DNA from: Amphiscolops sp. MND2022
Lineage: Eukaryota
Length of the DNA: 64,000 nucleotides
Assembly: GCA_964187785.1 (NCBI GenBank)
Contig: OZ076409.1
Span: 19,346,001-19,410,000, forward strand
Direction: 5' to 3'
The notes under the pieces are model-generated. The model saw nothing but the letters and a program-made list of their open reading frames with translations, did no database searches and was not told the origin of the DNA. Shown in pieces: positions 16,370 to 38,526 of the stretch (the first letter of the stretch is position 1; each line of letters opens with the position of its first letter). Position numbers and translations under genes: made by a program.

Positions 16370-16640
16370 AATTTTCATCAAATTTGCACTTTTTCTTGAT
16401 TTTCACAAAGTTAAAAATATTTTTGGAAAATTTTCTATCCATCGTTTGCCCCCAAGTCTCCTGCGGATGCTGATATGGTTTCATTGAAAATTTTTTCTAT
16501 TTAAAATAAAAATCGGTACTTTCCTAATAGACCGGACGCACTATATAGAGACCGTACAATCAGTCATTGACTTAAAGACTCCGGTTTCAGGAAAGTACCT
16601 AAAAATCATCAATTCTCTAAATACAATTCAAACTTTCATT

Positions 16641-16939: not shown

Positions 16940-16988
16940 TGTTGACAAGCAATAAGATTAAAAGCAAATTTTAGTTGTTCATTTTCAA

Positions 16989-17059
16989 GGCGCTATGGCC
17001 AAATAGTTAGTGCGCTAGCTTTCGAACCATAAGGTCTTGGGTGCGATTCCCGGACAGGT
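16989..17059 (+). pseudogene. tRNA-derived sequence (SINE head or tRNA pseudogene; TCG in the anticodon position)
   Basis: A-box-like TGGCCAAATAGTTAG and B-box-like GGTGCGATTCCC at tRNA spacing; stems pair poorly. Confidence 0.55.
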
Positions 17060-17341
17060 AAAATATTTCCTATTTCGGAAATAAGATCTAAATATTTTTC
17101 TTGATTTCAGTAAAATAACTTCGAGAAAAGGCCTTGCTATTTGTGTTACTGTTGTTTGCAATTAATTGTTGTCAAATATTATTTAATTATTTCGTTCTTT
17201 TTGCCGCTTTACATTTAATAATTTGATTGCTTTGTCATCATTGTGGGTTCGAAACTTGGCCCCGAATAATCAAGTATTTACTGCTTCTATTTTTGACTCT
17301 CAAAACGATCTATAGAGCAGCTTTTCCTATAGCTAATTTCA

Positions 17342-17532
17342 AACTTCGGTGAAATAGCAACGCGATGTGATTTTCGAGTAACTTCGGTGAAATAGCAACG
17401 CGATGTGATTTTCGAGTAACTTCATTGAAATAGCAACGCGATGTGGTTTTCCCCAGTGAATTTCATTGAAATAGTAATGCGGCGTGATTTTCAGTCAATT
17501 AAAGTGAAATAGCAACGCGATGTGATTTCGAG
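17342..17532 (+). repeat. Second array of the 38-bp minisatellite, 5 units
   Basis: Same GAAATAGCAACGCGATGTGATTTT unit. Confidence 0.9.
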
Positions 17533-18676
17533 TTTTTTCTAATGGGGGCCTATTCATACAGCAGAAAATAAAGCAGCATAAAGAAGCATCCTGATGGGAA
17601 TGAATATAAAAACTATTGTTGCGTTTGCAATACGATTGAAATAATCTAGAAGGGGAGACATTTTTGTGTTGTCTTTTGTTGTTTAAGGGTTCAAAGACGC
17701 CACCAAAGACGCCACTGTACTGTATTATATTGATTTATAACATCGATATTTTAACAAGATAACAAGATATATTGAAGAAAAAGGAACTATTTTTAGCTCA
17801 ACGTAGATCATCTAGACACTATCATGAGTCTTATATGTACTGCATTTTATATAAACCTCAGGAAAGTGCTAGTCGAAATATGTCAAATCAAGTTTAATTT
17901 GGATATTGTTTGCTAATGGCTCCCGCGAACTTATTTCCCTTTTCCCACTTAAAAGTTTTGGATTTTCAGCGTAGTCGTTTTTTCACTGTTTTGTCAGAGG
18001 AATTATCCCAGCTTACTGATAAAGGGCCACAGTATCCCATTTAGTTTTGGTAATGGTCACGAGTTTGCTTAAATTCATTTTGGATAGAGCCATTTTACGT
18101 GTTGACCGGGATTTTAGAAGTGAAAGTCAAGTTGTTCATGCAGCGTGACAACCTTCATTTTCCAATCAATGATCACCTTTTCTTGTTCACACAAGCGTGG
18201 AACGAACCTGACTTCATAGTTTTTGTTTGAAACATTCGAAAGCTTAGATTCAATAATTGATTAATTTCCGTGAAGGTGGCAATTTTCTGCAAACACTCTG
18301 GGGACAGATAAATTTTCCTGTGAGTGGGGTGGGGGGTATTAGCAAACAAGATCCGTTAATTTATATCAATAATCAGAAATTCTTCAATTGTAACACGACG
18401 AATTTCGTCTCGGTGCAAAACTGTGGCTATACTGTAGTGTTCATATCGTTTTCATATAGTACCAGTGCGGCGCCGAGCAACATCACCGTCCAAGTTAATA
18501 AACCACTTGACTTGAAATATTTCACTTGAAAGGAAAGTATTCAGTATTCGATGCCTATTCTGATTGAGTGAGACAGTACCAAGTTCATTCAGTTTTATAC
18601 TGTTATGTTTTATTTTCTTTTTCAAATATTACATTATTTTCTCACTCAAAATGCTCCTGATTTTAATTTACCCAAC

Positions 18677-18747
18677 GTTTACGAAACCAGAGTTGGTGGG
18701 ACATAGACCCCACTTTTTACTAGGCCTTGGTGGGACGGAAATAAGGT
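18677..18747 (+). repeat. Dispersed ~60-90 bp GTGGGAC-rich repeat (at least 10 copies between 18.6 and 47.4 kb)
   Basis: Consensus CGTTTACGAAACCAGAGTTGGTGGGACATAGACCCC.TTTTTACTAGGCCTTGGTGGGACGGGCA. Other copies at ~28308(-), 28440, 32606, 33060, 34220, 37143(-), 37768, 39519, 43118(-), 47260(-). Confidence 0.85.
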
Positions 18748-18816
18748 AAAGTCACTAGTTAAAAAAATAAACTAGTAAAAATTACATTGTCAAGAATTCA
18801 CAAGAAAAGAACTCAC

Positions 18817-19378
18817 TGGGTTCTGGTGAATACAAGTCGGATGCCTCAATTCCTCGCTCTCTGATTTCTTGCTGACGTCTCAAACAAGTGTTTTTTGACA
18901 GGTGTTGCTTGAGTTTTCCAGTGCTGGCGCAAATCAGACCGCATTCAGGACAAGTACAGCGATGAATACTCAAAGTTTTCCGTTGTTGATGAGCTAAAAC
19001 AGAATGAAGTTAATATCTCTAGATCTTCAAATAACATAAGATCAAAGAGCATAAAAATGGAATTAGTTCAAATTTTAAATGGCAAAGCATGAGTTACATA
19101 GAAAACACTACTTTGGGCCTCACCTATGATAGCATGAAAAAGGAAAACAATAGTCAACAAATATTCGTTTTCTTTTTGTTTGTTTCATTCGGGGTTTAAA
19201 CTAAAACTTTTCCCCAAAACTTGGCTTCAAAAAAATTTCGAAATTTCTCATTTTGAAAATATTTTTCAAATCCAACATAATATCTGAACTCACCAAGGCT
19301 TGTAGATTGATGACGCGTGTAGAACCATTGCTTGTTGGAATCAAACTCTTTGAAGCAGTGGATACAAGTGAAGGTCAT
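18817..19378 (-). CDS. Spliced zinc-finger gene fragment (exons 19378-19294 and 18993-18817); 3' exons not resolved
   Basis: GTGAGT donors and a TTCTGTTTTAG acceptor join in phase 1 to give MTFTCIHCFKEFDSNKQWFYTRHQSTSLAHQQRKTLSIHRCTCPECGLICASTGKLKQHLSKNTCLRRQQEIRERGIEASDLYSPEP. This has two C2H2/C2HC-like fingers; the splice supplies the last His of finger 1. Confidence 0.72.
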
Positions 19379-19509
19379 TCTGGAATCTGCAATCTAGGTC
19401 TTTTATTGAAGGTGGTAGAAAGTTTACCAAATGTCTACTACTGCACGGGACAAATGTTCAACACAAACTGAACCTGAAACTGTAACTTGACTTCGTCTCA
19501 GCAGCTCAA

Positions 19510-19580
19510 GATCGACCAATCACGTTAGCCGGATTTTGGTTGATCAACCAATCACAATAGCCGAAATTTGGCAGATTGGA
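19510..19580. promoter_or_regulatory. Cluster of CCAAT boxes upstream of the zinc-finger gene
   Basis: GACCAATCA, AACCAATCA and GATTGG within 70 bp, ~140-200 nt upstream of the ATG. Confidence 0.4.
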
Positions 19581-20559
19581 AAAAGATGATGTATGCTGGT
19601 GTTTGATGAGCAGGGCGACCAAATAATAACGTAAAAATTACAAAAGTTGATTTGACGATTTGTAGAAAAAAAAGACTTTATATTGACTTTGTGAAAAACA
19701 TTTGTCGAATCATGCGGTCGCAGGGGGGATAAGACACATGGTTCAAATACCATTGTCGACATCGTTTGCGTTGAAACTTTGATCAAGAAAACAATTGATG
19801 TCGACATAATTGTATACATTACATTGATTGTCAAAATAATGATTTAAAAATAATTTTTGCCTAAATAATTCCAATAAATACAATCAAAGTATTTTAATGG
19901 AACGCGAAAAAAAATACAAATAACTTACTTTCTCTCTGATAAAATACAAATAATTTATTTTTAGTGTCAAATAATTTTACCAGAAGAACAGTGTGCATAG
20001 GAAATATTTTTTGGCATCCCTCGGAGTTAAACAGATGGTCCCATTTGACTATGAGCCAAAAATCATTTACTGAGTACAATGATTAAACATAGGATTGAAA
20101 TAGTTAGAGAGATTTTCAGGCGAAAAGTTTCAATCATTTGCCAAGAGAGGGTGGGTTTATCTTTTAATTCCTTAGAATGCTTGTCACACTCATAATTCCC
20201 GTTTTTTACTTGATGATACTTCAAATTGATTTCAAAGATAATTTATTGAGGGAATGTATTTCATTGATATATTCAAACTTCTAATGAATACAAGACGATT
20301 TCAATTCTTGAGCTGCTTTGATGAATGAACTGGGTTTCAATTTTGAAAACACATATTATAAAGATATTGACAGTCGCGAGGATCGGTTAAAGGAGATAGG
20401 GCAAGAATGTATTGTAATTTGCAATTTTTAGTCCCAATAAATGATTATAGCATATTCAAAATCATAGCAACATCGACTGAAAAAAAGATCAACTTTAATT
20501 ATTAAAAACAAATAGCTATATACAAAGTTTTGAAAACGAAGTGTTCTTTTGAATAATGT

Positions 20560-20690
20560 TTGCAAAAGTGCATGTATAACCAATTGGTGTTTTTGCAAAG
20601 ATCGACTAATACCGAGTTTCGAACCCTTGACCTTGCGTTTATAATTCAAGCACTGTACCGATTAGGCTATAGTGTCTGAAATATTGTACA
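20560..20690 (-). pseudogene. Possible BED zinc-finger remnant (hAT transposase N-terminus)
   Basis: Minus-strand translation (frameshifted) QYF...VQCLNYKRKVKGSKLGISRSLQKHQLVIH resembles the BED pattern; the second Cys is lost. Confidence 0.3.
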
Positions 20691-21028
20691 ATTTAAGTTT
20701 CATTTATTTGCTACGCAACAAATAGGGACATCAATAAAATTCAATAAATTCCATTTGAATACAATACAAGATTATTTATTGTAGAGGATAATTGTTAATC
20801 GTGTTAATCAAGGTTAATTTTACGAATCAAATACCAGAACTCCTGTAAACTCCAGCTGTTTGCGCCATGAGAAAATTTGAGCCATCAATAGCCATTATGG
20901 CCATTATTGATGTAAACATTTGTAAACTTTATGGATTTTCTGTTTCGAACAATTAAAAAATAATAGTTTCCATTAATTTTTGAGCACCTCTGTTACCACC
21001 ACTTTGTCATTGACGAACCCCCACTTCG

Positions 21029-21197
21029 TCATTGCGTTGCTTGTTTTTTATCTTACTTCCATTATGGAAATAAGATAAAAAAGCAACGCAATGTGATTTG
21101 CGCGCTGACAAGTCGTCAACGCACAATCACATTGCGTTGCTTTTTTTATTTTATTTCCATTATGGAAGTAAAATAAAAAAGCAACGCAATGTGATTC
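21029..21197. repeat. Two consecutive palindromes built from an AAGCAACGCAATGTGATT motif
   Basis: CATTGCGTTGC...TTCCATTATGGAA...GCAACGCAATG occurs twice. Related motif at ~28245(-), 31370, 31490, 36158, 36257. Confidence 0.85.
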
Positions 21198-21924
21198 TGA
21201 GAAAATCCATTCTTTGCCCCCATGGCCAAGCTAGAGTATTTTTTCAATTCTCACCAAGTATGTATAGTACAAAAGGGGTCTAAGTCCCGCTGAGTGCGGA
21301 TTCGTCAACGGACAAACACTCAGTCACATCGTTTCTTTACATCTTTTATTCAGTCACATCTTTTATTCTCTTGCCATATACTATAGTTTAATTTGGTGGA
21401 TTACCAAATAACAAGAGCAAATGAGGTGGATTGATAATGCAGGGTTGTCAAAAAATTCGCACCAATTTAAATCGCAATTCAATTCGGGAATTAGTTCGCC
21501 GGTTTTTTCATTGATATTTTTTGTCGAAGGCCGCGTGTTGAATTGTACAAATTGTCTCACGAGAAAGCTCAGAAACGTGAGCTTATGCCAAAAAAAGGCT
21601 GAAAAATTGAAATTTTTGATGCGTTTTGTTGAAATATTTAACATCCCTCGTTTTGAAAGAAATTTTCGAGAAACGGTTTTGGAAAAAAATCGATTTAAAT
21701 CGCTATTTTGATTGAAAAAAAAACATTAAAAACGACGTTTTTCTAGAAAGAACGTTTTTTTAACCATGTGATTATTTAATAATACTAGTATTCTCGAAAG
21801 TATGCTCCAAAAAATTCAATAAAAAATTCATTGTAAAAATTTTTGACGCAGTGGGACAATCCTTTAAATTTACCAATTACAGCAGGAGAGTCATCCACTT
21901 CGGTCATCCACCCATGTCAGTCAT

Positions 21925-22328
21925 CCCGGTTTTGGGTGGTGAATGAACCAAGTTGAGAGCTTGACATACAAGCTGTTGGTTTGGATTCAATCAAGAGGGG
22001 GCAATCACTAATTTACTTGGTGAATAGAAACAAACAAGATTGCGGTAAAAGTCCCATCAATGCTTAGTAAATTACAGTTTCAGGTCCCACCAAGTGCATT
22101 TTCGAAACGTCCTATTTGTTTTTCAAACATTAACAACAGAAGCGTCAAGAAACCCTGCCAGCCCCATGAGGTGTTTGGTGGTGAATGAACCAAGTTAAAA
22201 GCTTGGCATCCAAGCTGGCAATCAAGAGAGAGAGCAATCACTGATTTACTTGGTGAATGAAAACAAACAACTGCGTTAAAATGTCCCATCAATGCTTAGT
22301 AAAGTAGTGACAGGTCCCACCAAGTGCA
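21925..22328 (+). repeat. Diverged direct duplication (~240-bp period)
   Basis: GGTGGTGAATGAACCAAGTT...GCAATCACT.ATTTACTTGGTGAAT...GTCCCATCAATGCTTAGTAAA...CAGGTCCCACCAAGTGCA present twice. Confidence 0.85.
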
Positions 22329-22622
22329 ACAACCAATCAAATTCAAACTTTTATCCAATTTTTTTCAACGTCATTTCTCATTCCATGAGTTAGTATTGCG
22401 TTGTTTTGTCGCCTAAGAAGGAAGAAGATTTCCAAGGCTTACAAAATACAATCAAATTCATAAGTTCATAGCAACACAAAAGTATTGATATAGCTAGTTC
22501 AAACGACACTAGCGTTGCAGATTATACTGCATAGAGCTGAAAGTATTCCAAGGAAGTCTACATTCATCAGCTGGTCAAAGAGCACATAGCAAGCCCAGTT
22601 CCGAGCTGACATCAACCCTATC

Positions 22623-23027
22623 ATGTTCAATCCCTCAGCAATGCCAATCAGGTCGTGTATTCGTCCGATAGATGAACTGCTCTCAAATTATGGACCACCA
22701 CACAGAAAAAACGTGCATTTTGCCGACTCAACTACCAATCAAACCTCTCCGACACATCCGAGAGCTTGGAGGATCAAAAGAAGCAAACCCATTCCTGAGA
22801 CAACCCCAACAACCTCGCTCACTCTAATCTCTTCTCTACGGAGTGAAAATACAAAAAGGAACAAAAAACCAGTAACAGTCAAGTTCTCTTTCATTGAAAG
22901 AGCTATACTACCAAATGGACAAGTAATGGAGTCCGTGATATGTTTCAATGCACCCAATGAATACTGGAAACCTGGGGCTCTGGACGACGAGCCGTGTTAT
23001 ATATTGAACTGCCGAACAACAAGATAG
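22623..23027 (+). CDS. 134-aa intronless ORF with a PP1-docking RVxF-type motif; possible reduced glycogen-targeting PP1 subunit (PPP1R3)-like protein
   Basis: ATG start. PIRSCIR...RKNVHFADS resembles PLRPCI...KKRVSFAD of PPP1R3 proteins. The C-terminus KFSF..LP..MESVICF..EYW loosely resembles the end of CBM21. CCAAT at ~22333. Confidence 0.45.
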   Translation: MFNPSAMPIRSCIRPIDELLSNYGPPHRKNVHFADSTTNQTSPTHPRAWRIKRSKPIPETTPTTSLTLISSLRSENTKRNKKPVTVKFSFIERAILPNGQVMESVICFNAPNEYWKPGALDDEPCYILNCRTTR

Positions 23028-23293
23028 TATTTCATTTTACTATTTGTCGTTTTTTGTTTACATTTTTCAAAATCAATTGACCTTTTTCATCTGATTCTCC
23101 ATTTCATGTTTTAAAAGCAAGCTATCTTGGAAAGGTAGAAAGAAGAGTGGCCACAAACAAAAATTGGAAAACGGATGTTCTGCGCTCACATTTTAAAATA
23201 ATTTTTGTTCCCGTTTTCTTGATTTCGGAAAAATGATGTCAATAATCTGTAATAAAGGGGGAAACCTCCTAGGGCTACGCCCTAAAGTCTATT

Positions 23294-23470
<177 letters not shown>

Positions 23471-24415
23471 GTTCGCGGTGACATTTTGCACCACAATTCC
23501 AAAATCGTGTACCACTTTGCATGACCTCGAAAAATCGCAAGACCGAAATGCACCTACTACTACCAAGAGCAAAATGGTATCAGATTTACTACTAAAACTA
23601 TGTCCAAGTAGCATGTGATTTTTTAAGTAGTAATACAGATCACAAATCTGAGAACCACTTTGCAATGCAAAAACTGTGAATACTCGGAACTCTCTGCGAA
23701 ACGTATTGAAATGAACTGAAATGAATAGTATTAGGTTCTGAGGAGGAATCAAATGATAATCGGAAGGCGTACGTTTTTTTGTAGCCATAGGGAGGATTTT
23801 GTAGCCATAGGGAGAGTTGACTCCGAGGGCTTGCACCTCTCGCACCCCCAGACAAAATGCATTCTCTCATAGCTTTTAAATAAAGTTACCAATCATTTGA
23901 ATACAAAGTCTTTAGTCACATACTGGAAAAACTTCAACTCAATCTTGCATGAGAAAAATGCAGAGAGCTGGGATATTGTAGCCATAGGGAGATGACTTTG
24001 AAGGGGCCTTTATTTTGCCTTTATTTTACGAAACGTTGAGCATTACCCAATCTGATGCTTGAAAAAGATTTGTTTGTCAAGGTTCTGGATTGCCACTTTT
24101 GATTTGAAATTTTAACAATTTTTCGAATTTGAATGATCACATCAGTTTTAACAACAGATATACTTTTCAACAGTATTCAACATTTTATAATCATTTGATT
24201 TTAATCAGCCAACTCTGCTTAAAAGATCTACAAAAATGAATAAAAAAATGTTTATTTGAATTCTGGGATCCAGTTAGTCTGAATTGAACTTGCTGAAGAT
24301 TTCCTTCAATAACAGCAGCTAACTGGTTGTGAATATAGTATATTCTTTACTAGGGATTGTAGCCAACAGTACAAGTAATAATAATTCCATATTTCAAGAA
24401 ACCATATATCAAATG

Positions 24416-24508
24416 GCTATTCAACAGATATACTTTAGAGAAATAGAGAAACCAACTAATTTGCTATTCAACAGATATACTTTAGAGAAATAGAGAAACC
24501 AACTAATT
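24416..24508 (+). repeat. Tandem duplication of ~46 bp
   Basis: GCTATTCAACAGATATACTTTAGAGAAATAGAGAAACCAACTAATT twice. Confidence 0.9.
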
Positions 24509-25343
24509 GTGAAAATTTCGTTCAGTCCCGGCATGGTTCGTAAGCGGATTTCCAATTTCTTCGTTCAATTGAATTCATTTCAATTCAATTCCAATTTCTT
24601 CGTTTGTATTGTAACGTTCGCATTGTAAATCGCAAAAGGCAAACAGCAAACAATTCTTATGATGACCAAATAACATAATAGCTATTTACTTCGTATGATT
24701 TGTGAAACTCAGTTCAGCTAAATGAATCAAATTCACAAGACAGAAACAAAAATAGTCTTACAAAAATTTGAAAATAAAATCCATTGTCATTTGTCAAGGA
24801 AATTGTCATTAAATGAAATGTCATTGAATCTGTCATTAAATTAAATTATAAATTTGCACTTATGTTATTTGGTCTACATTCGATGCAGTTTATTGGCAAA
24901 AACTGTTCATTGGCAAATTAACTTCTACCATTATTAAATTGCCATTAATACTTCTTTAATACTTGCCATTAATACTTGCCTTCTTTGCCATTATACTTCT
25001 ATTACTCCTTATACGGTAAGAACATTTAAAGGGTTACTCCGGGGTTAAAAGTTTTAGGTAGTGTTGCTATTTTCTTCGAAAACTTATAGAATTAACTGAA
25101 CAAACTTATGAATTTTTGAAGAAATAAACTTAAAGAATTCGAAGAAAGTTATTAGGATTCCTATTTCGAATTTGTCCATTGAATTCAACTATCATCAACG
25201 TCATAAGATGGGGGTTTTTAGGTTGAAAGGAGGTGTTGAGAGAGAGGTGTTAATTCTAAATGAGTGAAAATGAGTCTAACAGGTGAAAGACATCTAAACC
25301 TTTGATAATTATCTGAGGTAATGTGAGGAAAGAAAAATAAGCA

Positions 25344-25410
25344 GCCAACCCCATCCCCCCACCTCAACCCATCACCCCAACCCATCAGCCCAACCCATCA
25401 CCCCAACCCC
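25344..25410 (-). repeat. 12-bp C-rich minisatellite (CCCAACCCATCA); G-quadruplex-prone on the minus strand
   Basis: More than four G3-4 runs with short loops on the minus strand. Confidence 0.7.
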
Positions 25411-25864
25411 TCTCCATGATAGTTTATTAAAAGTCTAGTTAAAAGTTCAGTAGAGGAAGTTTATTTTTAGAGTTTAATTTTTTTAAATTTTAGAGTTTTA
25501 ATTAGTTTAAAAAGCAGAAATTAATGAATTATTGATTAAGATGAAAATCAAAATATCTTAGATAAATCAAATTTTTTTAGAGTTTTAATTGATTTAATTA
25601 GTTTAAAAGGTAAAAATTAATGAATTATTGATAAAATCATAATGAGGACACTTTTCAAGAAGTAAATTACTTTGTGACAATTTTATGCAGAAAAATCAAA
25701 CATGACCATTGGTTATTCATCAGAATAAGAATTAAAGTATGATATAAATTAAATCAAAGTTCCGAGGAAACTTCGATCAAATAGATTTAAATAAAATTGA
25801 AGTACGAATGAAACTTCGATCAAAGTTGATCAAATATATAAACAACTGAAATCGAAATGATAAC

Positions 25865-25946
25865 GGGGACGGTGGTTCAGTGGTTAAGTGGGCTGGTTGT
25901 TCGGGCTTGTTCATCGCAAACCGGGGTTCGAATCCCAGACTGGGCG
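25865..25946 (+). pseudogene. tRNA-derived SINE head or tRNA pseudogene
   Basis: Good A box TGGTTCAGTGGTTAA and B box GGTTCGAATCCC; no acceptor-stem pairing. Confidence 0.6.
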
Positions 25947-26078
25947 GGTTTGGAATGCGAATTTTTATTGCTGTTTTGATCTTTTAAGTGTTTGACTGGA
26001 AACACCCTTTTGACTGGAAACACTGAGTCACTGTCCTTTTTTGAGGAAACAAGGGAGGGAGGAGAGTCACAGTACTAA

Positions 26079-26805
26079 AATAATATAAATAATCTAATAA
26101 TAATCTAAGGACCAGATTTCTTTGCCCCCCCTTTTTTTCTTCAGAAGATATTGCTTTTTTGATGTTCTTTGAAAAAACACGAAAAGTTCTGAATATCTGA
26201 ATTATTCGTTACTATTGCGCTTTCTTATTGGCCGAGAATTCAACCAATTAGGCATCTGAATCAAAAGTACAAAGTTTCACACTTTTGAATGATGATTTAA
26301 GTTGATTCAAATATTATTTAATTTCACAGTATTATATAATTATTATATAACAAATATCATTTTAAAATAATTTTAAAAAGTGTGGGGGGAAAGGAAAAAG
26401 TTCCGTTACTATAATCAATTGCATAAACAACATTTTGAAAAGTGTGGGGGGAGGACAAAGTTCCGTTACTATAATTAATTGCAAAAACAACAATTTACCC
26501 CCACACTTTTTAAAATTATTTTAAAATGATATTTGTTATATAATAATTTTATAATACTGTGAAATTAAATAATATTTGAATCAACTTAAATCATCATTCA
26601 AAAGTGTGAAACTTTGTACTTTTGATTCAGATGCCTAATTGGTTGAATTCTCGGCCAATAAGAAAGCGCAATAGTAACGAATAATTCAGATATTCAGAAC
26701 TTTTCGTGTTTTTTCAAAGAACATCAAAAAAGCAATATCTTCTGAAGAAAAAAAGGGGGCAAAGAAATCTGGTCCTTAGATTATTATTAGATTATTTATA
26801 TTATT
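26079..26805. repeat. Long near-perfect inverted repeat (~310-bp arms, 26079-26388 and 26498-26805)
   Basis: Arms are reverse complements with very few differences. The spacer holds a ~60-bp direct duplication of the arm end. Confidence 0.95.
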
Positions 26806-26828
26806 AGATTATTAGATTTAATGCATCC

Positions 26829-26881
26829 GGCTGCAGCTCAAGCGGTCACTGGTTAGAACCCGGGTGCAACCTAACTTTTTT
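26829..26881 (+). pseudogene. Internally deleted tRNA-like sequence followed by a T-run
   Basis: GGCTGCA/TGCAACC acceptor-like stem, A-box-like CAGCTCAAGCGG, B-box-like GGTTAGAACCC, then TTTTTT; anticodon arm absent. Confidence 0.4.
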
Positions 26882-27035
26882 CATTTGATATTCTCCCAAG
26901 AGATTTTTGTTTTCGAGAGATTATTCGAATTTGAAGCTTGTTTTGAAACTAAAACGGGTACACAACTGCTTTTAAAAAAAGGATGCAGAGTGGTCAACTA
27001 ATTTTTTCACGAGGTTCCAGGTGTCAAGATGCAAG

Positions 27036-27245
27036 ATGAGACCCAAAAACTCGAAGCCAACAAAACTTTATAGTAGATGTATTATTTGTTTAGAGGACTT
27101 TAGATCAGTAGAATTACAGAGCTTTCATAGAAAACATTCCTTACATTTAGCATGTAGAGACTGTTTAGATTCCCTTTTTGTATATTCAGATGTATTTAAA
27201 TGTCCATTATGTAGAATACCTGTAGATAACATTGTATATTCTTAG
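27036..27245 (+). CDS. 69-aa RING-finger-only protein (variant ligand order C2-H2-C4), paralogue A
   Basis: CIIC-x15-HSLH-LAC-RDC-x13-CPLCR; clearly homologous to 40517-40735, with a conserved MR start. Confidence 0.8.
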   Translation: MRPKNSKPTKLYSRCIICLEDFRSVELQSFHRKHSLHLACRDCLDSLFVYSDVFKCPLCRIPVDNIVYS

Positions 27246-27287
27246 TTTTGTAAATTTTGTAGTTTATTTTATTAGTTAATTTACGGA

Positions 27288-27621
27288 CAGGGGTGTTAAA
27301 AGTCTCCCTTTTTTGTTATTTAAGACAACATTAGGTCATTACTGCCATTTAGTCCATTCACCCATCTGGGTTCAATCTTTCAGTGCATTTCTTTTTGGTT
27401 CATTGGATTTTGCATGTGGTGTTAAAAGTCTCCCTTTTTTGTTATTTAAATCAATATTAAGTCATTACTGCCATTTAGTCCATTCACCCATCTGGTTTCA
27501 ATCTTTCAGTGCATTTCTTTTTGGTTCATTTTGTCATTTGGTTCATTTTTGGTTCGTCATTTTGGTTTGTCATTTTGGTTCATTTTGTCATTTGACTAAA
27601 CGATAATTTTTAACACCCCTG
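27288..27621. mobile_element. hAT-like MITE with an internal ~128-bp tandem duplication
   Basis: TIR CAGGGGTGTTAAAA...TTTTAACACCCCTG; 8-bp TSD not recognisable. Confidence 0.7.
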
Positions 27622-27624
27622 TTC

Positions 27625-27703
27625 GAGACCTTACAGAGGCCACGTTCTCGTCGTGGGTCTTGTTAAAGGGTGACACTATGTGATCCCCGAACTGAGAGCC
27701 TCT
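27625..27703 (+). ncRNA. HDV/CPEB3-like self-cleaving ribozyme candidate, copy A
   Basis: P1 GAGACCU/GGGUCUU with G1-U wobble; P3 ACG/CGU; L3 UUCUCGU; single-pair P1.1; P4 hairpin; CNRA joiner; P2 AGAGGC/GCCUCU. Confidence 0.72.
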
Positions 27704-28307
27704 TTAAAATTACAAAATTTTGGGCTAGTGTTATTGTATGTTCTGATTTCTGATCAGAACATTAACAAAGGCCCAACATTTCGAAAATGTGTCATTGTGA
27801 AAATCAGTAGCAGTGCTGAAATCTAAACACCATATTACATCAATTGAGAATGCATTATGGGTTCGCGGCGTTGTACCATCTGCAACTTGGAAGCAAAAAA
27901 TTGAAAAATCATTTTTTTTTCAAAGTTGTGGAAAATTACTTTTTAATCATTTTCCTGAAAGAGTTTGAGTTCTTTTTATGCTCTACAGATTTTTTTTGGT
28001 TTACTTGGTCTCAGAAATTTTTTTGAGGGTCGGAAAATTAACTTTCAATATATGTACGTCAGACAATTCTGTAAAGTTTTAAATGATTCATTTTTTAAAG
28101 CATAAATGATTTCATGTTTAACGCGTTTCCTCTCCTCTTGAACTGGGAAGAACAGACAAAATGCCCCTGTAATCTCTTGGTTCCCCACGGTTGAATCTTT
28201 TAGGTAATATGTCTAACAAAACAATACACATCAAATCTCAACCCAATCACATTGCGTTTCCTTCGCTCAGTCCTTTTCCAATTTTTGTCAATTTTCACTG
28301 TCTCATA

Positions 28308-28518
28308 GGAGTTCCCACCTTTCATGTCCCACCTTTTGCCCGTTCCACCAAAGTTTATTTAAAAAGGGGTCAATGTCCCACTAAGTCTGCTTTCCTCAAA
28401 TCACACAATCCTTTAAGAATTTTCACTCAGATTCAATTGGTCGTGTACGAAATAGACCCCACTTTTTACTAGGCCTTGGTGGGACGGGCACAAGGTGGGA
28501 CATAATAAGTGGGACGCC
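28308..28518. mobile_element. MITE-like pair of inverted GTGGGAC-family repeats
   Basis: Left GG.GTTCCCACC...GTCCCAC and right ...GTGGGACGCC are imperfect reverse complements. Confidence 0.55.
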
Positions 28519-30019
28519 ATTTCACACATAGTGTTTTCGTTCAAAAACATTTCTCAGGAACCCTGGTCACATTGTAATTCTTTTAGAACATTTTTCTAAG
28601 GAAACGATACAAAGATAGCCGGCATTTGAAACCATACTGCATTTATTGCGACAAAATTCAATTGGCTGACGACGCAATTCATTATAGCGGAAAGTTTTTG
28701 GCTGGTGAAAACTTGTATTTCGAGATTCGAAAAGATTCGAAAAGAAAACATTATTCCATCGCTCTAAAAATAAATCGTTTCATTTAACATTTACATAATA
28801 GCCTCTTACAATGGAACAAAATGAGGACAGTTTCTCAGCCAGCAGTTGTTACGCCAAGACCCACCAGGGCCAAGTAAAAAATATCCTGAAATTAACCTTT
28901 ATATTAATATCTTATATATTATATTTATTTTTCATTATATTGTTACACACGTGGTACCCTTAGTCTCTCACTGCGCGTGAGCGTCGTATTTTAAATACTC
29001 AATGGGTTCGACATGCACTGGAAAGTTTTTATCAACCGCATTATTGACAGACGATTCAACGATTTTTTTTCTAAAAACGGGCTGTCACTTTCTAGTTTGG
29101 CCTCGGTGGTGTCCTTAAAATGTTCCTAATTTTTTGACTTTCTGAGGCTGGTGTTCTTATTAAGGTAATCTTACAAAAACTGGGTGTAGTCTATTCATTG
29201 TAGTCTATGCTATAATCAATCAATAACAGTATTTTAAAATAGCTTTATTAAAACAAAATATATGTAGAATTGAATAAATAGTTTTGAAAAAAACACAAAT
29301 AGTTAATAAATAATTTCTACTCGTATTTTAGAACGCAATTCTACAACATTTCCAAGACACATGCTTCTTTATTTCTACTACATACATAGACTTTTTACCA
29401 AATTGACCCACTATAAGAATTATTCATAACAAAAACAACAACATGTTAGAATGACGCACTTTGGACAAAACGAGGTCAATCACCAAAGAAATATACCTTT
29501 CTTAGTGGGACATACAACGATAACAGCGACTTCTCCGTCTCATTCCGAGGATGCGGTTCATACCTGATCAAAAACCTGTTCAAATCATGGTACTTGGTGG
29601 AGCATAAGGTGGGGATATGCAGTAGTTATTCTAGAAGAAGCAACATAGCACGCGAAAGAAAGCAAATGAACAAATCTCATTGGCCGATCAAGGTCTCACG
29701 CGCTCATTTCATTGGTTGAGAGCAACGTGCAAAACATCAGGTTTTAGTTTTTTGAATTTTTGACCCACTTACAATTTTTTGATTTCAAATCGTTTCCGAC
29801 TTTGCTGTTCCTAATTACTTGATTATCTATAGCCGGTTAGGTTACCAAAGTAATTCACTTTGAACTATATCACAACTGAACACCGAATAATTACTCGCGA
29901 ATAATTTTGGGACAATTGTGGCTAGGACGTTTTTGGAAGGGGTACTGTGGAACTCCAGTTCTTTCTCAGTCTCTTTGAACTCAGTCTGTTTAGTCTAGTC
30001 TGTAACACCTAATCTACTG

Positions 30020-30361
30020 ATGCCTTGCCACAAACTATTTTTGAACTTACAGTGGGTAGTTCCACAAGAGCTCAAAAACCTCGATATTGAGGTAGTTACA
30101 ATCACAAAAATATATTGGACCTTCAGAGGAAAAGTCATCAGAGTTTGTTTCTTTGGAATTCAATTCAACCGCTCTCATCCGCTACCCGTGAAAAAGACCC
30201 CAACCAAATTCAACATACACCTTCACCCTCAGTCAAAAAGTTTCAAGGACTTGTACGAAGTGCTGTGCTACCATGCTCTGGACAACAAGGATCCACTACT
30301 GGAAGAACTGCTGTGCTTTATGTCCAGCAAGGAGATTTCTTTCGAAAAACTATTTGACTAG
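30020..30361 (+). CDS. 113-aa orphan ORF, unknown function
   Basis: ATG start, globular-looking composition, higher GC than flanks, paired ATTGG (CCAAT) boxes at ~29680-29716. No recognisable domain. Confidence 0.4.
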   Translation: MPCHKLFLNLQWVVPQELKNLDIEVVTITKIYWTFRGKVIRVCFFGIQFNRSHPLPVKKTPTKFNIHLHPQSKSFKDLYEVLCYHALDNKDPLLEELLCFMSSKEISFEKLFD

Positions 30362-30700
30362 TCTTTGGACAAATCATTCTTTAACATAAAACTCTAATTG
30401 CACGCACTTATTGTGTTTTTTGTTTCCATTTGTATCAGCCTATTCATTTATAAAAAAATAGTTGTTTGTGTAATTGTTTCAAATATTTGTTCAGTTGATT
30501 TTCTGTTTTAGTAGAAACTTTTTGAAAAAATTGTTATTGATTATTTGAATATTGACATTTAAACATGATTACAAGGTAATGGACCATGTCATCAATCCCC
30601 CCCCAAACTGTAGAAAAATAAGACACAAGGTTCAAATACCATTATGTCGACATCGTTTGCATTGAAATTTTTAGAATTAGTGAATATTCTGCTTCGTGAC

Positions 30701-31126
30701 CAGGGATACGCAATAAATAATTAACTGCAAAATAACTGCAATTTTTCTTCAAAATAATTTATTCCTTGACGTAAATATTATTTAAAATTAATTTTCAGGA
30801 GTTAGCTATAAAAATAACTGCGGAAAAACTGGGTCAAACTTCTAAATTATTTAATATTAATATTTCTGTGGAGTAATGCGTAAACAGGCGTTGAAAACTG
30901 CATATACAAACCTCATTATTCTGCATTAAAAAATAGTCAAACTGTTCAAAGTTTGTTGATTCCTGATGATAATTAACATTCTGAATATTGCGTTTTGACA
31001 AAAAAATTTTGCAATTAATAATTTTTCAAAACCAAAAATTGTAATAATTTATTCAGCAGGCCAAAAAATATTAACTTTTTGCTGCGTAAAAGCAATAGTA
31101 TTGCAATATTTTATTGCATATCCCTG
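30701..31126. mobile_element. hAT-type MITE
   Basis: TIR CAGGGATACGCAATAAA...TTTATTGCATATCCCTG; perfect 8-bp TSD TTCGTGAC. Confidence 0.9.
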
Positions 31127-33924
31127 TTCGTGACACCCTTCCATATGGTCCAAGGTAATTTAAGTTTTGAAACCAAAATATGTTCTTTTCTGTTACTTCC
31201 CCCATAGTAAGCGCAAAAATTTTAATTCAATTTTTAAAGAGATGCGGTTACTAGATATATACCTACCTCATGAACCTCCATTACCTATAAAACTGGACCC
31301 TATCCGAACGCAGCAGCAAAACAACATTTTGTGGTAGTTATAATCAGATCCAGAAAAAAAATTATAAAGAAACGCAATGTGGTTGAGCATGAAAAGGTGT
31401 TATATTGACCACGAAAAGCACGCCTATTTTGATTCTCAAGCTAGCTTGTTGCATAGCTGGAGAATTGAAGTTCATTGAACGACGGAAAGAAGCGCAATGA
31501 GATTGAGCATACGTGCAACGGGTCTGCCAAGTTGCCTTTGTTTATTTAATTTACATGTACATGTTGCTCCTAAAACTATAGCTTACATGTACAAGGTAAT
31601 ACAGTCCTGTGATAAAAGAATGGAACCACAAATTGGTAATAATATTTGGAACACCTAATTTTTCTGCCCATATCTCTGAAACTATTGATATTCAAGAAAA
31701 ATGTCTCAAATAAAAGTTTCTCAAAATTTAACCTAGTTTATATTTGTTTTTTTGAAACTTCTGTGGCAAATATTGGGGGAAACTAGCTCCCAATACCTCT
31801 CTATGTAAAAGTTGGTTTGTCAACCAAGTTTCGAACCTTTTCTGTTTATTCCCTACCAGTTAAGCGGACAAATGAAATTTTGATTGAATTAATAGTAACA
31901 AACAATCAAATTGCAGTATTTTATAACTCTAACTGCAACTGAAACTCATCGCTGATAGTGGTGGGGAATTAAAGTTTCCGCGCTTACTGTGCGGGGGGGG
32001 GAAGGGGGGTATGAACAAAAAAGATCCGAAGTTTTTAATTTTTGCCAAACAGTTTTGATTAGTTTTTGTTTATCTACCGGTTATTAGACGAGTGGAAACT
32101 AGACAAAAATCCAAGAAACTTTTGTTTTTAACATATTTCGGAAAATTCGACAGTTTTTGAGAAATTTGCAATCTCATTTGGTGTTCCCCCCAAAACACGA
32201 AAGCACTTTTTGTTCTCTAATAAAACAATTTCACTAATAAGACAAAATTATCGATAATCAATAAAAACGGCACGAACGGAGCTAAATAGTCGCTCAGGCA
32301 GGTTGGATGTTGACTTAATCCTTGGGCTAAAATAAATAATTTTTTTGTATTTATTGAAAATTATGTATCAATAAACTATTTATTTTGCACCCCTGGGTAC
32401 AGTTAGTTCTAAAATATCGCAACTCCTTTGCTTAAACTTTCTTAGAATGTTATCTAGTTTACAAAAATGTTTTGGAATTTAAAAAGAGTATTTCATTTCA
32501 AAAAAGAACTAATTCCGTTTCTATCTTATACAAAAATCTCCCAAAAGCTATTCAAGTGAAAGTTTCTCAATTTTTCAATAAGAGTTGAGGCGTTGAGGCA
32601 ACTAGCGTTGGTGGGACATAGACACCTTTTTACTAGGCTTTGGTGGGACATGCATTAGGTGGGACATAAAAGGTTCGCCATATGAATGAGTTAAAGTAAA
32701 CAAATAAGAATTAAAAGCCGAATGGTTAGAGCAATAGATTCGGAGTCTGATGAAGAAGCTGAAAGTATCTATCGATGTCTTGAATTCTATTTCTGTAGCT
32801 TGTTAACCCTAACTGGACCAAGAAAATTCCGGATCCACCCAAAACTCTGGTGCTAAAATATTGAGGCCTTTTTGAAATGATCTAGAACAAAATATTTTTG
32901 CAGTTTTGCGGGAGGTATAATACTCGGTCACTTGGATTTGTACGTAAACTCTAATATGCTACGGCAACTTAATTCCAATTCGTTCAATCATATTTTGTAT
33001 ATCACTGTAGTTCAAATGTGATAGTATCACAAATGTTTCTCAAGTTGAACAAAGCAGACTTAGTGGGACATAGACCGCCTTTTTACAAAGCCTTGGTGGG
33101 ATGGCCACTTCTTTTGAAAAAAAATATAGGGCCATTGCTTAAAGAGGTGAGCCTTCTCGATTCCAGTATGAATTTTTTTATGTAAGAAAAAGACGCTTCT
33201 TGTAAAAAGTCGGCGCCAAAAAAGGCGCATAGTGCTGAAAAAACCCTAAGGGCGGACACTTTAGTCACCCCTCTACTTCTGGAAGCATAAGAAAACTTTG
33301 TGGTTTAGTGCCAGAGATCGACAAACCTTTGCAAAACCATGGGACCCGAATAATCGAGTACGAAATGACAGCCATGATAATTCGAGCATTGTTTCGATCA
33401 ATTTGTTTTGGATATTTCCGTCATTTTCTCCCAAAGCCATTGTCTATCAAATTGCAACTGTTAAATGAACGTAAAAACCTATAGGGTTGTCTTTACAGCT
33501 CTTTTGACATTAGCAGCAAACAAGGCTACTAAATTTATCGCTATGTACCAAACTTTATCAGTTGAAGACAGGAATTGGAAAATATCAATTGCAATTTAAT
33601 TTATTTTCAAAAATGGCACAAAAAATTAATTGCACTTTTCGAAAAACTCCAATTCAATTGATCAATTATTTGGCAATTAATTTCAACGAAAAACATTTAA
33701 AATTTCATTCATACTATCACAATCAAAAATAATGTTTGTGTGAAAGGACAAAACAAACTTTTACTAAACAAAGCAAGGAATAGATAAAAGATAGAGTTAA
33801 ATAACGATGTTTTTCGTCAATGATTTGACTCCATTGATCATTCAAGCTCCTAACACTGATCGCAAAACACTATCAAAACACCTTAATCTTCAAAATTTCG
33901 TCACTTTTCCTACGAAGTATCCAA

Positions 33925-34574
33925 ATGCTGCTCTGTGCCGTTTGTGGGGAGGAACTGTACAACCTTATTTGGTGGCTTGATGAGAAACACGCAATATGCC
34001 GGGTGTGCCGTAAGGCTTGGATCAAAAGCCTAGAGAGGTGAGTTTTACAGAACCTTGCTTTTGAAGTTTGTAGTTGAAGCTGACAATGTTTTTTACTTCA
34101 AAAGTTTCCCATATTTCCATGAACAAAATTCCAAAAACTTTCGTTATTTCAAAGATAGTTTTTTGATGCCATGAAATTATTACTTTTGAGTAATTCTTGA
34201 TACGTTGAGTAAAGTAGAATTAGTGGGACATATACCCCCTTCTTCACTAGACCTTGGTAGGACGGGCATTAGGTGGGTCATGAAAGGTGGGACATGAAAG
34301 GTGGGACGTCCAATTAGACGTTCAAAAATTATTGAAATTGGCAAAAAAATTGTTGGAGCTAACATTCTACAAAGTGTCTAATCCCCTGCACATTGACTCC
34401 GTTTCCAGATCAAGAATTAATAAAACGGAACAAAAAGTTTGAAATGAACTAACTTATTCATGATTGTGTTCATAAATTATCCATACTGTGATTTACAGGC
34501 AAACGACCACTGGCAGCATCATTTGGGTGAAGTGCCCTCAGTGCAGGAGAGAGAGCGTGCTTAAATGGAAGTGA
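33925..34574 (+). CDS. Spliced 62-aa RING-like mini-gene (exons 33925-34037 and 34499-34574)
   Basis: AG|GTGAGT donor and TTTACAG| acceptor in phase 2 give MLLCAVCGEELYNLIWWLDEKHAICRVCRKAWIKSLERQTTTGSIIWVKCPQCRRESVLKWK*. The splice unites CxxC..HxxCxxC with the terminal CPxCR. Confidence 0.75.
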
Positions 34575-34667
34575 GAGGTTGATCCAATTTCAGAAATTAT
34601 AAAACTTTTTCAAATGAACTGATTTTATTTTTATTTACATTGACTTTGTATAAAAAAAACAATAAAC

Positions 34668-35125
34668 GGACCATGTGATCTATTTCCCCCCCAGGTACAC
34701 CTTGTTAGGAAAATCCCCCCCATTACGAAAGCACATTTTGTTCTTGAATAAAAATATTTCGCTAATAAGAGAATATTATATGAATGTAAATACTTAGAGG
34801 ATTGTCTCCACAACTGTTTGGACACTTCAGGCAAAAAAATATCATATATTTTTTTTGATATTATTGTCCAAAATAGCAGAAATTCACGTTGGGAACATGC
34901 TAAAATTGTATAAAAAGGCCCTTATTTAGCGCAAATTTTGTCCGCTATAAAATCTAATGAGCAACTTTTAACTGACAGTCAATGTAATTGATAGGATTAT
35001 GTCGACATCAATTATTTTATTGGACTAAAATTTCAACGCAACGATGTCGACATAATGGTATTTGAACCTTGTGTCTTATTTCCCCCCGCCGCAGTTTGGG
35101 GGGGGGGAAATAGATCACATGGTCC
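34668..35125. mobile_element. Merlin-like MITE (related ends at ~19720-19830 and 30581-30670)
   Basis: TIR GGACCATGTGATCTATTTCCCCCC...GGGGGGAAATAGATCACATGGTCC; perfect 8-bp TSD CAATAAAC; GG...CC termini. Confidence 0.85.
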
Positions 35126-36317
35126 CAATAAACTTGTTCAATCACATTTTTTCATTAGTAAACTCAATTCTTTTTTTCCTTTTTCTCCGCCAGGTCTTCC
35201 ACATTTGTATTGCAATATCATTGCGGCTCTCAATAATTTATTTCTATTGCGCGCTGAGGAAAAACAATTATCTAGACAAAATATACAAATACGTCCAAAA
35301 ACGCCCGGTTTGAGTAATTATACTGCGCGAGGAAGTGGAGAAGGACATTGCTTTCAATACCGCTGCATTATTGCCACGGTGGAGGCGATTGGAACATCAA
35401 CAATCACAGTTGTATCTATTCCATGCAATATCTGGTGGTATCTATTGCAATAATTTCACAATATATTTTACAGTCAAATGAGTTATACAATTATATAACT
35501 TTTGAAACATTTTCTGCCGACCCGAGTTCCCTGTTATTATGGAGAAATTGAATGGCCTCCGCATGCAGTGGTGACAATGCATGTCGCAAATGAGTTTGTG
35601 TCAACCAATGCGACACAATTCTATTGGCTGACGACGCAATTCGTCATTGCAGAATTATTTTGGCGATTAGATACATAATTTTTATTTCAAGATCCAAAAA
35701 TAAATCATTTTTCTTCCATGATCTCAAAAATAAATTTTTAATATATATTTGTTGCAGGTATTTCCATTGAAGTAATTTTTTCGGTAACCCTGGTCAATAT
35801 AAAATTATTTTTTAGAAATAGTGAAGTCATTTGTTTTTGAATTATTACGTCAATATTTGGTCGCCCTGAAGATCACGAACCAAATAATATGAGCAAATAA
35901 CACAAATATCTCAAATAGAAGTTGTTTCAAATATAATTTTTCAAATAGAAGTTGCCCCCGAATATAAGCCGCCCCCGATTAGAGCCACATTAAGCATGAA
36001 AAATTTATCCTAAATGCCATTGCTTACCGTATTTCTTCGAATATAAGCAGCAAAATTACTGCAGAAAGAAAAACGGTAAAAGAATTAAGGTAATAATAAT
36101 GATAACGTTCCAACTAACATAATTTAGTTCGTTGTGATGGGAATTGAACTGATAAAGAAACGCAATGTGATTGAGCATGAAAATTGCATTCATCATTCAC
36201 AACCTACAGCTAGCTTGTTGCATAGACTGGAGTTCATTGAACGACGGACGGAAAAGAAACGCAATGTGATTGAGCATGCTTTTGTCATTAGCGTACATGT
36301 AACGAGGAACGTTCTAC

Positions 36318-37606
36318 AGTAGCCTTCTAACATATCGCAACTCAATTGTGCAAAAATGCAAGTTTCAGATCAAACTATCTTAAAAACTATCAGAAATACG
36401 AAAAATTGTCAGTTAAGAAAGTTTCTAAGAAATTTATCTAGTTTACAAAAATGTCGATTTGAAATTTCTGTGACAAAAAATACTTTAGTTAGAAATTGCA
36501 ATTTTGACAAAATTTAATCAAATTTGTATTTTTTTTTCTGGATTTCCATGAGGTTGAAAGAATTATTTGAAAAACTCAGTCAATCATTTGCCCCCAAACC
36601 TCCTTAGGACAGGGGTTGGCAATAAATAATTATTGAAAAAAAATTGTCAATAAATAAATAAGAATTATTTATTTCGAGATCGAAGAAATAAAAATAAATT
36701 ATTTTCCTTGGTAAATAAATTTTACAGTAAACTGAAACGTATTGTTGCGGGATAATTGAATTGTTAGTAGAATTTGAGTGGACGCCGAGAGCTGTGATTT
36801 GCTAACCGAGCAGTATTCACAAATTATAGAAAGGAGACATCTCCAATCAAACCTAGAGGCGCAGATATTCCTCCAGTTCAATAAAGAATACATATTGGAA
36901 TGTCAGGACTGTAGCAGATTTGATTGAGTTTTTTTATTGATTTTATTTTAAATAAGTTCAATAATTTATTTTTTCCCAAGCACAATAAAAATTATTTATT
37001 GCTAGGCTTGTATTGTATTGCAATACATTATTACCAACCCCTGCCTGAGGATGCTGATATAAGTTTAACGGAACACTTTTTTGATTTCAAAGAAAAATCA
37101 TCAATTTTCTAAATACAATTCTTATAACCAATCTTAATACAGGTCCCACCTTTTATGTCCCACTTAATGCCCGTCCCACCAAGGCCTAGTAAAAAAGGGG
37201 GTCTATGTCCCACCAACTCTGGTTTGGTACACGTAGTTCAGTGCTCATAGACACAAAATATAGTGTATTTTTTTCGAACAAATTTCTCAATCAAAACAAT
37301 TCAGTAGGTTCGGGAGATTAAAGAAAGTCTCCGAATCAAATAAAAGAATATATTAAAAAAATCAATTCTAAGCTACTCAATTTTCGAAAAACTCCAATTT
37401 TAACTAAAATTTTCTAAATATTGCAATTTTCAACTTTTTTGGTAACGGTTGTAGAAATTTCAAACAAACATTTTTGTAAACTAGATAAAGTTTTCAGAAA
37501 CTTTCCTAGCTGGCAAAAGTTTGTATTTGTGACAGTTTGAGAAATTTGGTTTTGAATTTTGTCATTTTATACTATGAGGTTGCGATATTAACAGAGAACG
37601 CTACTG
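36318..37606. mobile_element. Tc1/mariner-type non-autonomous element with long degenerate TIRs (same family as 41328-43530)
   Basis: TA|CAGTAGCCTTCT...AGAACGCTACTG|TA; ~170-bp imperfect TIRs; contains nested insertions. Confidence 0.75.
36610..37043. mobile_element. hAT-type MITE nested in the previous element
   Basis: CAGGGGTTGG...CCAACCCCTG; TSD CCTTAGGA/CCTGAGGA (7/8). Confidence 0.85.
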
Positions 37607-38069
37607 TAGAGTATATCTAAATCTTAATATCTTGAAAACTGTCACAAATTCAAAAAACTGTCAGCTGAGAAAGTTTGAGAATTTAATCTAGTATAAAATA
37701 CTTGCCAAAATTGCATTTGTTTTTTTTAAGTTACAGAAAATTAAATGCATTCAGTTTGGTTTCGTAAGCGTTGGTGGGACATGTACACTTTTTTGCATGC
37801 CCTTGTTGGGACAGGCATTAGGTGGGACATCGCAAGATGGATGAGTTTTAAACTGAAAAAATTTATAACGAGTTCAATTTAACAAAAATGAAATTCATTT
37901 TACTAAACATAAATAGGAACCGGAAAATAGTTGATTTTTTGGGGGGCAAAATAGTTGATAAAATAGTTGGTAAAAAACGGAATTGGTAAAAAAAATATTG
38001 AATTTGTCATGTCTTACAAATGGAAAACTCTACAAACTACAGAAAGTTTTAGTTGGCAAAATCCACCAC

Positions 38070-38526
38070 CAGGTATTGGTAAAGATTAATTGCATTGCAA
38101 ATAATTGCATTCATCTCTCACAATTGATTGATTGTCAGCCGTCGATAAAACCAATTCATCGATTGCAAAACATGCAATTAACTGCAATTATAGACTATAC
38201 TTTTCGTTTCAATTCACTTTATATTTTGCCTACATCGAATCTAGCCGTTTTTTTCAGCATGGCGGGATATGTCTGATAAGATTTGTGTCAGAGAATAATC
38301 CCACGTAAACTGGAATCTCAATTATTTCTCAAAGTGAACTTTCATTTGTGGCGTAAATACACTTGTGGAGACAGCTATCTTTTAAAAAGTTAAACTTTGT
38401 CTAGCTGCTTTTTTGTTTGAATTTTGCAATTAATTTCAGTGATTGATTGCAAAAACGACCAATTGAAATTAATTGTTTCCAAAAAACAGCTACCATATAA
38501 ATTCAATTAACTTTTACCAACCCCTG
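38070..38526. mobile_element. hAT-type MITE
   Basis: CAGGTATTGGTAAA...TTTACCAACCCCTG; TSD TCCACCAC/TCAACCAC (7/8). Confidence 0.8.

Follow-up and report, generated by a model that had tools for sequence, protein, structure and literature searches.

A RING-only mini-gene in the 64-kb stretch of DNA analysed here (the window) is followed by a predicted HDV-like self-cleaving ribozyme that heads a conserved module and is carried by a giant tyrosine-recombinase transposon. The explanation that we favour, with a probability of about one half, is that a module of a retrozyme- or SINE-like family was captured by the transposon and has been retained to cut during transcription, thereby ending or damping the transcripts of the cargo. 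The positions of the features are given in Table 1.

Table 1. Features of the window discussed in the text (a point in the strand column marks features without a strand).
Feature	Position	Strand	Basis or remark
Window copy of the giant tyrosine-recombinase DNA transposon	15140..47354	.	98–99.7% identity to ten copies, in multi-kb blocks
Splice-acceptor-like site (branch-like sequence, pyrimidine run, AG)	26995..27020	+	sequence; putative, splicing predicted
RING-only mini-gene A, 69 aa	27036..27245	+	ORF call; Pfam RING E 1e-5, under the cut-off
U-rich spacer, 42 nt, UGUA repeats, without AAUAAA/AUUAAA	27246..27287	+	sequence
MITE-like insert, 334 bp, 14-bp perfect terminal inverted repeats	27288..27621	.	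3 nt 5′ of G1
HDV-like ribozyme, predicted cut 27624/27625	27625..27703	+	alignment parse, pair counts, descriptor
Conserved 3′ domain: A-rich hinge, ~55-nt hairpin (27720–27776), terminal ACA	27704..27778	+	end of homology; fold
Copy B ribozyme and hairpin module	39821..39973	-	HDV descriptor; catalytic C at 39907
Independent insert in the copy-B spacer, 476 bp, near-perfect 8-bp target duplication	40019..40494	.	sequence
RING mini-gene B	40517..40813	-	Pfam zf-C3HC4, over the cut-off

The RING cassette and its predicted ribozyme

The RING ORF, the U-rich spacer and the insert of cassette A were all present where the original prediction had placed them, and a second RING gene with the motif (copy B) lies on the minus strand at 40813–39821. 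RING A gave a weak match to Pfam zf-C3HC4_3 (25.7 bits, under the 27-bit cut-off), and its ligands are atypical (C-x2-C...H-x2-H-x2-H-x2-C-x2-C...C-x2-C), the third apparently being His. All 30 type-A copies had an intact ORF, and six RING paralogues gave dN/dS values of 0.20–0.56 with dS up to ~1.5, which are rough estimates from short sequences. A homologue search returned three matches, all near-copies of paralogue C. Look-alikes in the Atlas at ~0.90 were mostly viral RING proteins, which we take as a lead only. The acceptor-like site lies 15 nt 5′ of the RING A ATG, and similar sites were seen in four RING paralogues. Just 5′ of RING A, a 266-bp inverted repeat (26127–26759, 99% complementary) was present in all copies read.

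The distance from the stop codon to G1, the first base of the ribozyme, is 379 nt in cassette A with the insert and 45 nt when the insert is removed. In uninterrupted paralogues it is 49 and 61 nt, which agrees with the ancestral spacing of ~45 nt between stop codon and cut that had been proposed. The insert had been called a hAT-like MITE. It has inverted ends, but an 8-bp target duplication is missing at 27288–27621 and the flanks differ, so that the hAT label is an analogy only. The left end of this insert gave 64 exact matches, and all six of those on contig C1 lie within type-A cassettes; an insert resembling it in kind is also found in paralogue C. Among seven RING cassettes, two independent inserts have entered the spacer, lengthening it from 49–61 to 379–872 nt, and none has entered the module. 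AAUAAA and AUUAAA are absent from all seven spacers when these are taken free of inserts (7/7). Such spacers carry two to five UGUA each (shuffle P 0–0.12, the spacers not being independent and a duplicated target entering two of the counts). Four of the seven spacers carry AAUAAA within the inserted MITE.

Compared across genomic copies, the 79 nt from G1 form an HDV-type nested double pseudoknot, for which self-cleavage is predicted. In HDV-like ribozymes the catalytic C opens a joiner of the form C-N-R-A (J4/2). These ribozymes are described as nested double pseudoknots that are cut before the first base of P1 and have the catalytic C as the first base of J4/2 (PMC4908430, PMC10879173). At 27625–27703 we find a P1 of 7 bp with a G1-U pair, a 3-nt J1/2, a P2 of 7 bp with a bulged A27697, a P3 of 3 bp, a 7-nt L3, a one-pair P1.1, a P4 and the putative catalytic C27692. 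An HDV descriptor, which was composed after the motif was known and allows the bulge, found exactly two sites in the window (27625 on the plus strand and 39973 on the minus strand); each of 150 block-wise dinucleotide shuffles gave no site. Searching Rfam with the whole window at E<=5 yielded 23 matches, none of them to HDV, CPEB3 or another ribozyme family, so that a match to the curated models was not obtained; as Rfam models are lineage-specific, a missing match is weak evidence. A nested-only fold of the 79 nt was unremarkable (z -0.28), which is expected of a pseudoknot.

The fold was assessed in 29 aligned copies. The fetched loci held 118 complete instances in 32 clusters, from which L155 and L185 were omitted for internal duplications and L188:234 for a replaced 5′ end. 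Over P1, P2, P3, P1.1 and the P4 core, 95.7% of 608 cells were paired, with two-sided changes in 38 cells, which is covariation of the kind that the original prediction had called for. None of 500 shuffles scored as high and slid controls gave 41–59%; relatedness among the rows can raise this count and beat shuffles, and three rows with a 2-nt J1/2, shifted by one column in P1, lowered it. By an anchor-based parse the G1 pair is G-U in 26 copies, G-C in two and broken in one. The second P1 pair is A-U in 12 copies and G-C in 15. P2 is 97% paired, with an outermost pair that is A-U in 14 and G-C in 13. P3 is identical in 29/29 copies and thus uninformative on covariation; because the search pattern contained the P3/L3 core, no evidence can be drawn from its invariance, and L3 has 7 nt in all rows partly through this selection. 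The C-G pair of P1.1 is present in 28/29 copies. Read from C27692, J4/2 has C in 28/29 copies, then any base, a purine in 29/29 and A in 29/29. Next come an invariant G, whose partner is the final 5′ base of P2, and one variable bulged base (A in 21, U in six, C in one and G in one).

For the junction between J4/2 and P2 two models had been proposed, a bulged A with C27692 or a longer linker with C27688. The C27688 alternative ends in G in 17/29 copies and was rejected. We chose the bulged-A model, with C27692 as the putative catalytic base and a 1-nt P2 bulge throughout the family. Taken together, P1, P2/P3, L3, P1.1 and J4/2 agree with the HDV family across the 29 copies, and the fold comparison predicts a cut at the site originally proposed.

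A genome-wide family of ribozyme modules

Homology among the paralogues starts at G1 and stops ~155 nt further on, at ACA. Judged by this homology, the ribozyme heads a ~155-nt module that consists of the ribozyme, an A-rich hinge, a covarying hairpin and ACA. In the hairpin the sequence varies and the pairing is kept, with z below -2 in 20/29 copies and a z of -6.8 in copy A. A hairpin followed by ACA is also seen in H/ACA RNA; the rows were picked by a pattern that contains the final CA. In the alignment, read by eye, several subfamilies lacked the ANANNA H box, and the middle stem was self-paired. As neither the H box nor the guide pocket was conserved, identity as an H/ACA snoRNA was rejected.

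The core motif had 1,002 exact-pattern matches in the genome, a lower bound for the family since exact patterns rather than a covariance model were used. The pattern of the RING-element subfamily gave 583 matches and a second pattern 138, and reversed controls gave 0. The second group includes tandem arrays with periods of 217, 247–248 and 524 nt (L176, L177, L178, L186, L199), which are candidates for circular RNAs, as well as dispersed families with longer shared flanks. An unrelated repeat that is at least ~14 kb long (L196/L197, L204–L207) has one module copy ~700 nt 5′ of a long ORF. This ORF has a zinc-finger-like motif, looks spliced and lacks a Pfam match. The module is flanked by a donor-like site on one side and by the ORF on the other, and may belong to a 5′-UTR intron. 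Some module copies are visibly degenerate.

The motif pattern had no match in viral contigs and two in metagenome contigs. One of these, at L209:1150–1333, is an intact ribozyme and hairpin module with a different 5′ flank. The other, on L208, we regard as a chance match in GC-rich sequence that resembles bacterial coding DNA.

It had been considered that the motif might simply head a LINE. No reverse-transcriptase frame was seen within ~1.5 kb downstream in 13 non-redundant 3-kb loci, and this model was rejected for the loci scanned, most of which reach ~1.5 kb downstream of the motif.

The RNA data were contigs of two runs from a single seawater sample, which shared 5–12% of words. The pieces that fit the locus lie between 27620 and 27943. 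Several contigs cross the predicted cut site into other upstream sequence, which could represent uncleaved RNA or DNA; such contigs cannot show ends, and neither cleavage nor strand is readable from them. The RING gene and the MITE had no cover in the contigs of the two runs, which proves nothing.

The module may instead serve itself, as a retrozyme- or SINE-like parasitic RNA or as a small, stable non-coding one, using any transcript that reaches it, with the RING gene only supplying a promoter. The ribozyme would then free a 5′ end, and the hairpin-ACA would be a handle for reverse transcriptase or a 3′ protection. Homology that runs from G1 to ACA, the covarying hairpin, the tandem arrays, the occurrence in unrelated repeats and the start of locus-fitting RNA contigs at 27620 all point in this direction. 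HDV-like ribozymes with variable upstream and conserved downstream sequence are also described as probable heads of retroelements (PMC6765202). However, the surroundings of the module copies read showed no poly(A) tail, target duplication or partner reverse transcriptase, and the arrays could be duplications at the DNA level. Moreover, the module persists behind nearly every RING gene across a dS of ~1. We hold a self-serving module to be possible, if doubtful.

The carrier element and the association with RING genes

The window copy of the carrier lacks the left ~12 kb, which in other copies holds the recombinase, SET and JmjC-like frames and would lie past an assembly gap at 14940–15139. Its right end, at ~47351–47354, adjoins a (TG)n tract. 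All of the 29 other top loci (29/29) aligned to the window over the whole 3.17 kb with 97.4–98.9% identity, and ten copies could be followed over tens of kb to shared ends, which lie in CA-rich targets. From end to end the copies on contigs C8 and C7 measure 57.4 kb and 50.4 kb, respectively, and the pairing of end matches per contig suggests 50–61 kb for other copies, plus a 5-kb derivative. The ends, which lie in CA-rich tracts, form imperfect inverted repeats and have no clean duplication beside them. Of the ends inspected, 30 of 30 on the left and most of 18 on the right had the CA-rich flank, and the left ends had 194 exact matches genome-wide.

The minus strand of the left arm encodes a SET domain (E 7e-8), a JmjC-like fragment (E 0.013) and a 270-aa recombinase frame with 2,413 relatives, in which the R, K, K, H and Y columns are invariant. 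The top ten Foldseek matches of the recombinase model were all tyrosine recombinases or integrases (XerH, XerA, an integrase) with probabilities of 0.99–1.0 and a best E of 0.007, which does not reach 0.001. As a single sequence the frame gave nothing relevant in Pfam and PDB sequence searches and no match among longer proteins in a word search, and its profile placed XerA at E 0.1. A SET domain, which we take to be linked to the name CryptonV, was found in 10 of 19 long relatives scanned. Among the ORFs listed for the element, none stood out as a reverse-transcriptase or capsid frame, with Pfam run on selected frames. Judging from the recombinase residues and the microsatellite targets, the carrier appears to be a CryptonV-like tyrosine-recombinase element.

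We also noted several other features. The window copy contains a 10-base motif 20 times, with 0 occurrences outside it, and this motif may mark recombinase-binding sites. At 41665–43086 a 63/76-aa ORF that contains a CxxC motif is present twice, head to head, through a long inverted duplication; several assemblies break there. Two ORFs of 113 aa (30020–30361, identical in two other copies) and 134 aa (22623–23027) have no Pfam match and are possible further cargo. Variants of the element exchange left arms at a (CTA)n tract (23290–23470); the related elements L033, L040 and L157 carry a ribozyme module ~480 nt 5′ of such a tract. A motif that also stands 5′ of RING B is split at 30701–31126 by an insert whose termini are CAGGG, with a perfect 8-bp target duplication. 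Tandem repeats of 38 bp occur in both orientations at 16632–17544, 41174–41328 and 43493–43609. Outside the element, a reverse-transcriptase ORF fragment lies at 12382–13644 (RVT_1, E 7e-31).

The original prediction had raised the possibility that the RING gene and the ribozyme together form a ribozyme-bounded retroposing RNA with an E3-like cargo. The pair does recur at several positions and in both orientations inside the element, and the RING pattern has 302 matches. The copies travel with 50–61 kb of DNA, however: cassette A is present in about 64 copies of ~98–99% identity and moves as DNA with the element. The cassette is not bounded by a poly(A) tail, a target duplication or a second ribozyme upstream, and an acceptor-like site lies 5′ of the ATG. 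In addition, the piece freed by an HDV ribozyme would carry the RING but not the ribozyme. We consider a mobile RNA of this kind highly improbable.

The association of RING genes with the motif is tight but one-way. On contig C1 the motif lies at most 1.1 kb downstream on the same strand in 21 of 22 RING-pattern matches. With a narrow pattern, 35 of 37 RING genes on C1 and C2 have the motif at most 1.1 kb downstream, and 35 of 78 motifs have a RING gene, by a hand tally. The broad motif on C1 has a RING gene upstream in 21/80 instances and none in 59/80, so that most members of the family lack the RING ORF to which the motif had been tied. A full copy of the element holds five modules in both orientations. 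Three stand behind intact RING genes and two are without one, and one module has outlived the deletion of the RING coding part.

Within seven cassettes the ribozyme is 87–99% identical, the coding sequence 66–83% in distant pairs, the hairpin 58–95% and the flanks ~50%. Identity of 87–99% among paralogues with dS up to ~1.5 indicates that the ribozyme is maintained. Relationships among RING genes and among hairpins disagree, as cassettes B and L158 are 94% identical in coding sequence and 64% in the hairpin; gene conversion at the core could therefore inflate its conservation. Given the module that survived RING deletion and the swapped hairpin types, conversion and RING-independent roles are both possible. 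All pairs of RING gene and module may also descend from one capture, in which case the linkage represents one event.

The module might accordingly be a passenger, once active and behind RING genes by descent only, homogenised by gene conversion among hundreds of copies, without present function and perhaps unable to cleave. Such a history would account for every pair by a single ancestral capture, and it fits the swapped flanks at the core, the RNA contigs that cross the cut site and the degenerate copies. What makes it unlikely, in our opinion, is that the hairpin diverges in sequence yet keeps its structure among RING-linked paralogues, which conversion does not produce, and that the subfamilies hardly differ in their catalytic core.

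Under the explanation that we favour, a captured cutter, the HDV-like ribozyme would head a ~155-nt module of a genome-wide retrozyme- or SINE-like family, one module of which would have been captured ~45–60 nt behind a RING stop codon in an ancestor of the giant CryptonV-like transposon. Duplication of gene and module within the element, followed by their spread as DNA along with all 50–61 kb of it, is shown by the copies. The nascent cargo transcript would be cut just after the stop codon (~45 nt, or 379 nt with the insert), which may be why the module has been kept intact. Such a cut would create a non-polyadenylated 2′,3′-cyclic-phosphate end, which would end the transcript and hold RING output and read-through low, and it would also free the hairpin-protected RNA downstream. 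A poly(A)-independent 3′ end or destabilisation of the mRNA is plausible as the outcome. Against a cutter we count the RNA contigs that span the cut site, the 59/80 motifs on C1 without a RING gene, the two modules without an intact RING gene in a full element, the module 5′ of an ORF in another repeat and the AAUAAA in four MITE-bearing spacers.

Relation to known systems and significance

Genomic HDV-like ribozymes are known mainly at the 5′ ends of retrotransposons and in introns. The family described here is like the HDV-like ribozymes with a one-pair P1.1 (CPEB3; R2/RTE/L1Tc) in fold, cut position and the L3 and J4/2 core. It differs from them in the missing Rfam match, in a 1-nt bulge after the first P2 pair, in a constant downstream hairpin-ACA and in its setting, which is a DNA transposon or a tandem array and not the 5′ end of a LINE.

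Metazoan non-LTR retrozymes are described as low-GC tandem repeats of ~150–300 bp with one type I hammerhead ribozyme per monomer (PMC7229834, PMC7761336). The sister subfamilies with 217–248-nt arrays and one ribozyme each resemble them, whereas cassette A is a single copy without an array and the family carries HDV-type ribozymes instead of hammerheads. Ribozymes downstream of a coding region are described for the Clec2 3′-UTR hammerhead (PMC6765202) and for Leishmania SIDER2. The latter is presented as a retroposon-derived HDV-like ribozyme in 3′-UTRs that is proposed to have been exapted for mRNA control, with hallmarks in down-regulated mRNAs that are without in vitro activity (PMC4035085). 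In both of these cases the carriers are host genes, whereas here the carrier is transposon cargo.

CryptonV elements are described as having a tyrosine recombinase and inserting into microsatellites (PMC8869645), and the original Cryptons as lacking TIRs (PMC3212892). The carrier shares the recombinase and the microsatellite (CA-rich) insertion, but differs in its size of 50–61 kb, its cargo genes and ribozyme modules and its imperfect inverted ends, the likeness being to published descriptions of the group. Fungal Starships, as far as their descriptions go, are likewise giant and cargo-carrying, with a recombinase gene near one end. In contrast to Starships, the host here is not fungal by context, no Pfam captain family was matched, and the recombinase gene points toward the end of the element. 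Run labels and the kinds of element present suggest a marine animal as host. Among the titles and abstract beginnings searched, none reported HDV-like ribozymes that form tandem retrozymes, follow RING genes or occur in Crypton-type elements, which does not establish absence from print. Nor did the combination of tandem HDV monomers, a constant hairpin-ACA and retention behind the cargo of a giant transposon appear in this literature.

This genome unites about a thousand copies of the ribozyme core, HDV arrays of retrozyme size and a recently amplified 50–61 kb transposon with a ribozyme behind almost every RING cargo. A ribozyme as a signal for mRNA 3′ ends or damping can thus be tested with natural variants, namely spacers of 49–872 nt and RING-less copies. 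The carrier is of interest itself, as a Starship-sized recombinase element outside fungi with chromatin (SET, JmjC-like) and ubiquitin (RING) cargo. As a tentative and broader proposal, a giant recombinase transposon in an animal-type genome may use HDV ribozymes from an HDV-based retrozyme family, instead of cleavage and polyadenylation, to end its cargo genes and to stop convergent transcripts from overlapping. The released ~155-nt hairpin-ACA RNA, together with circles from the 217–248-nt arrays, would then constitute a new class of ribozyme-made small RNA.
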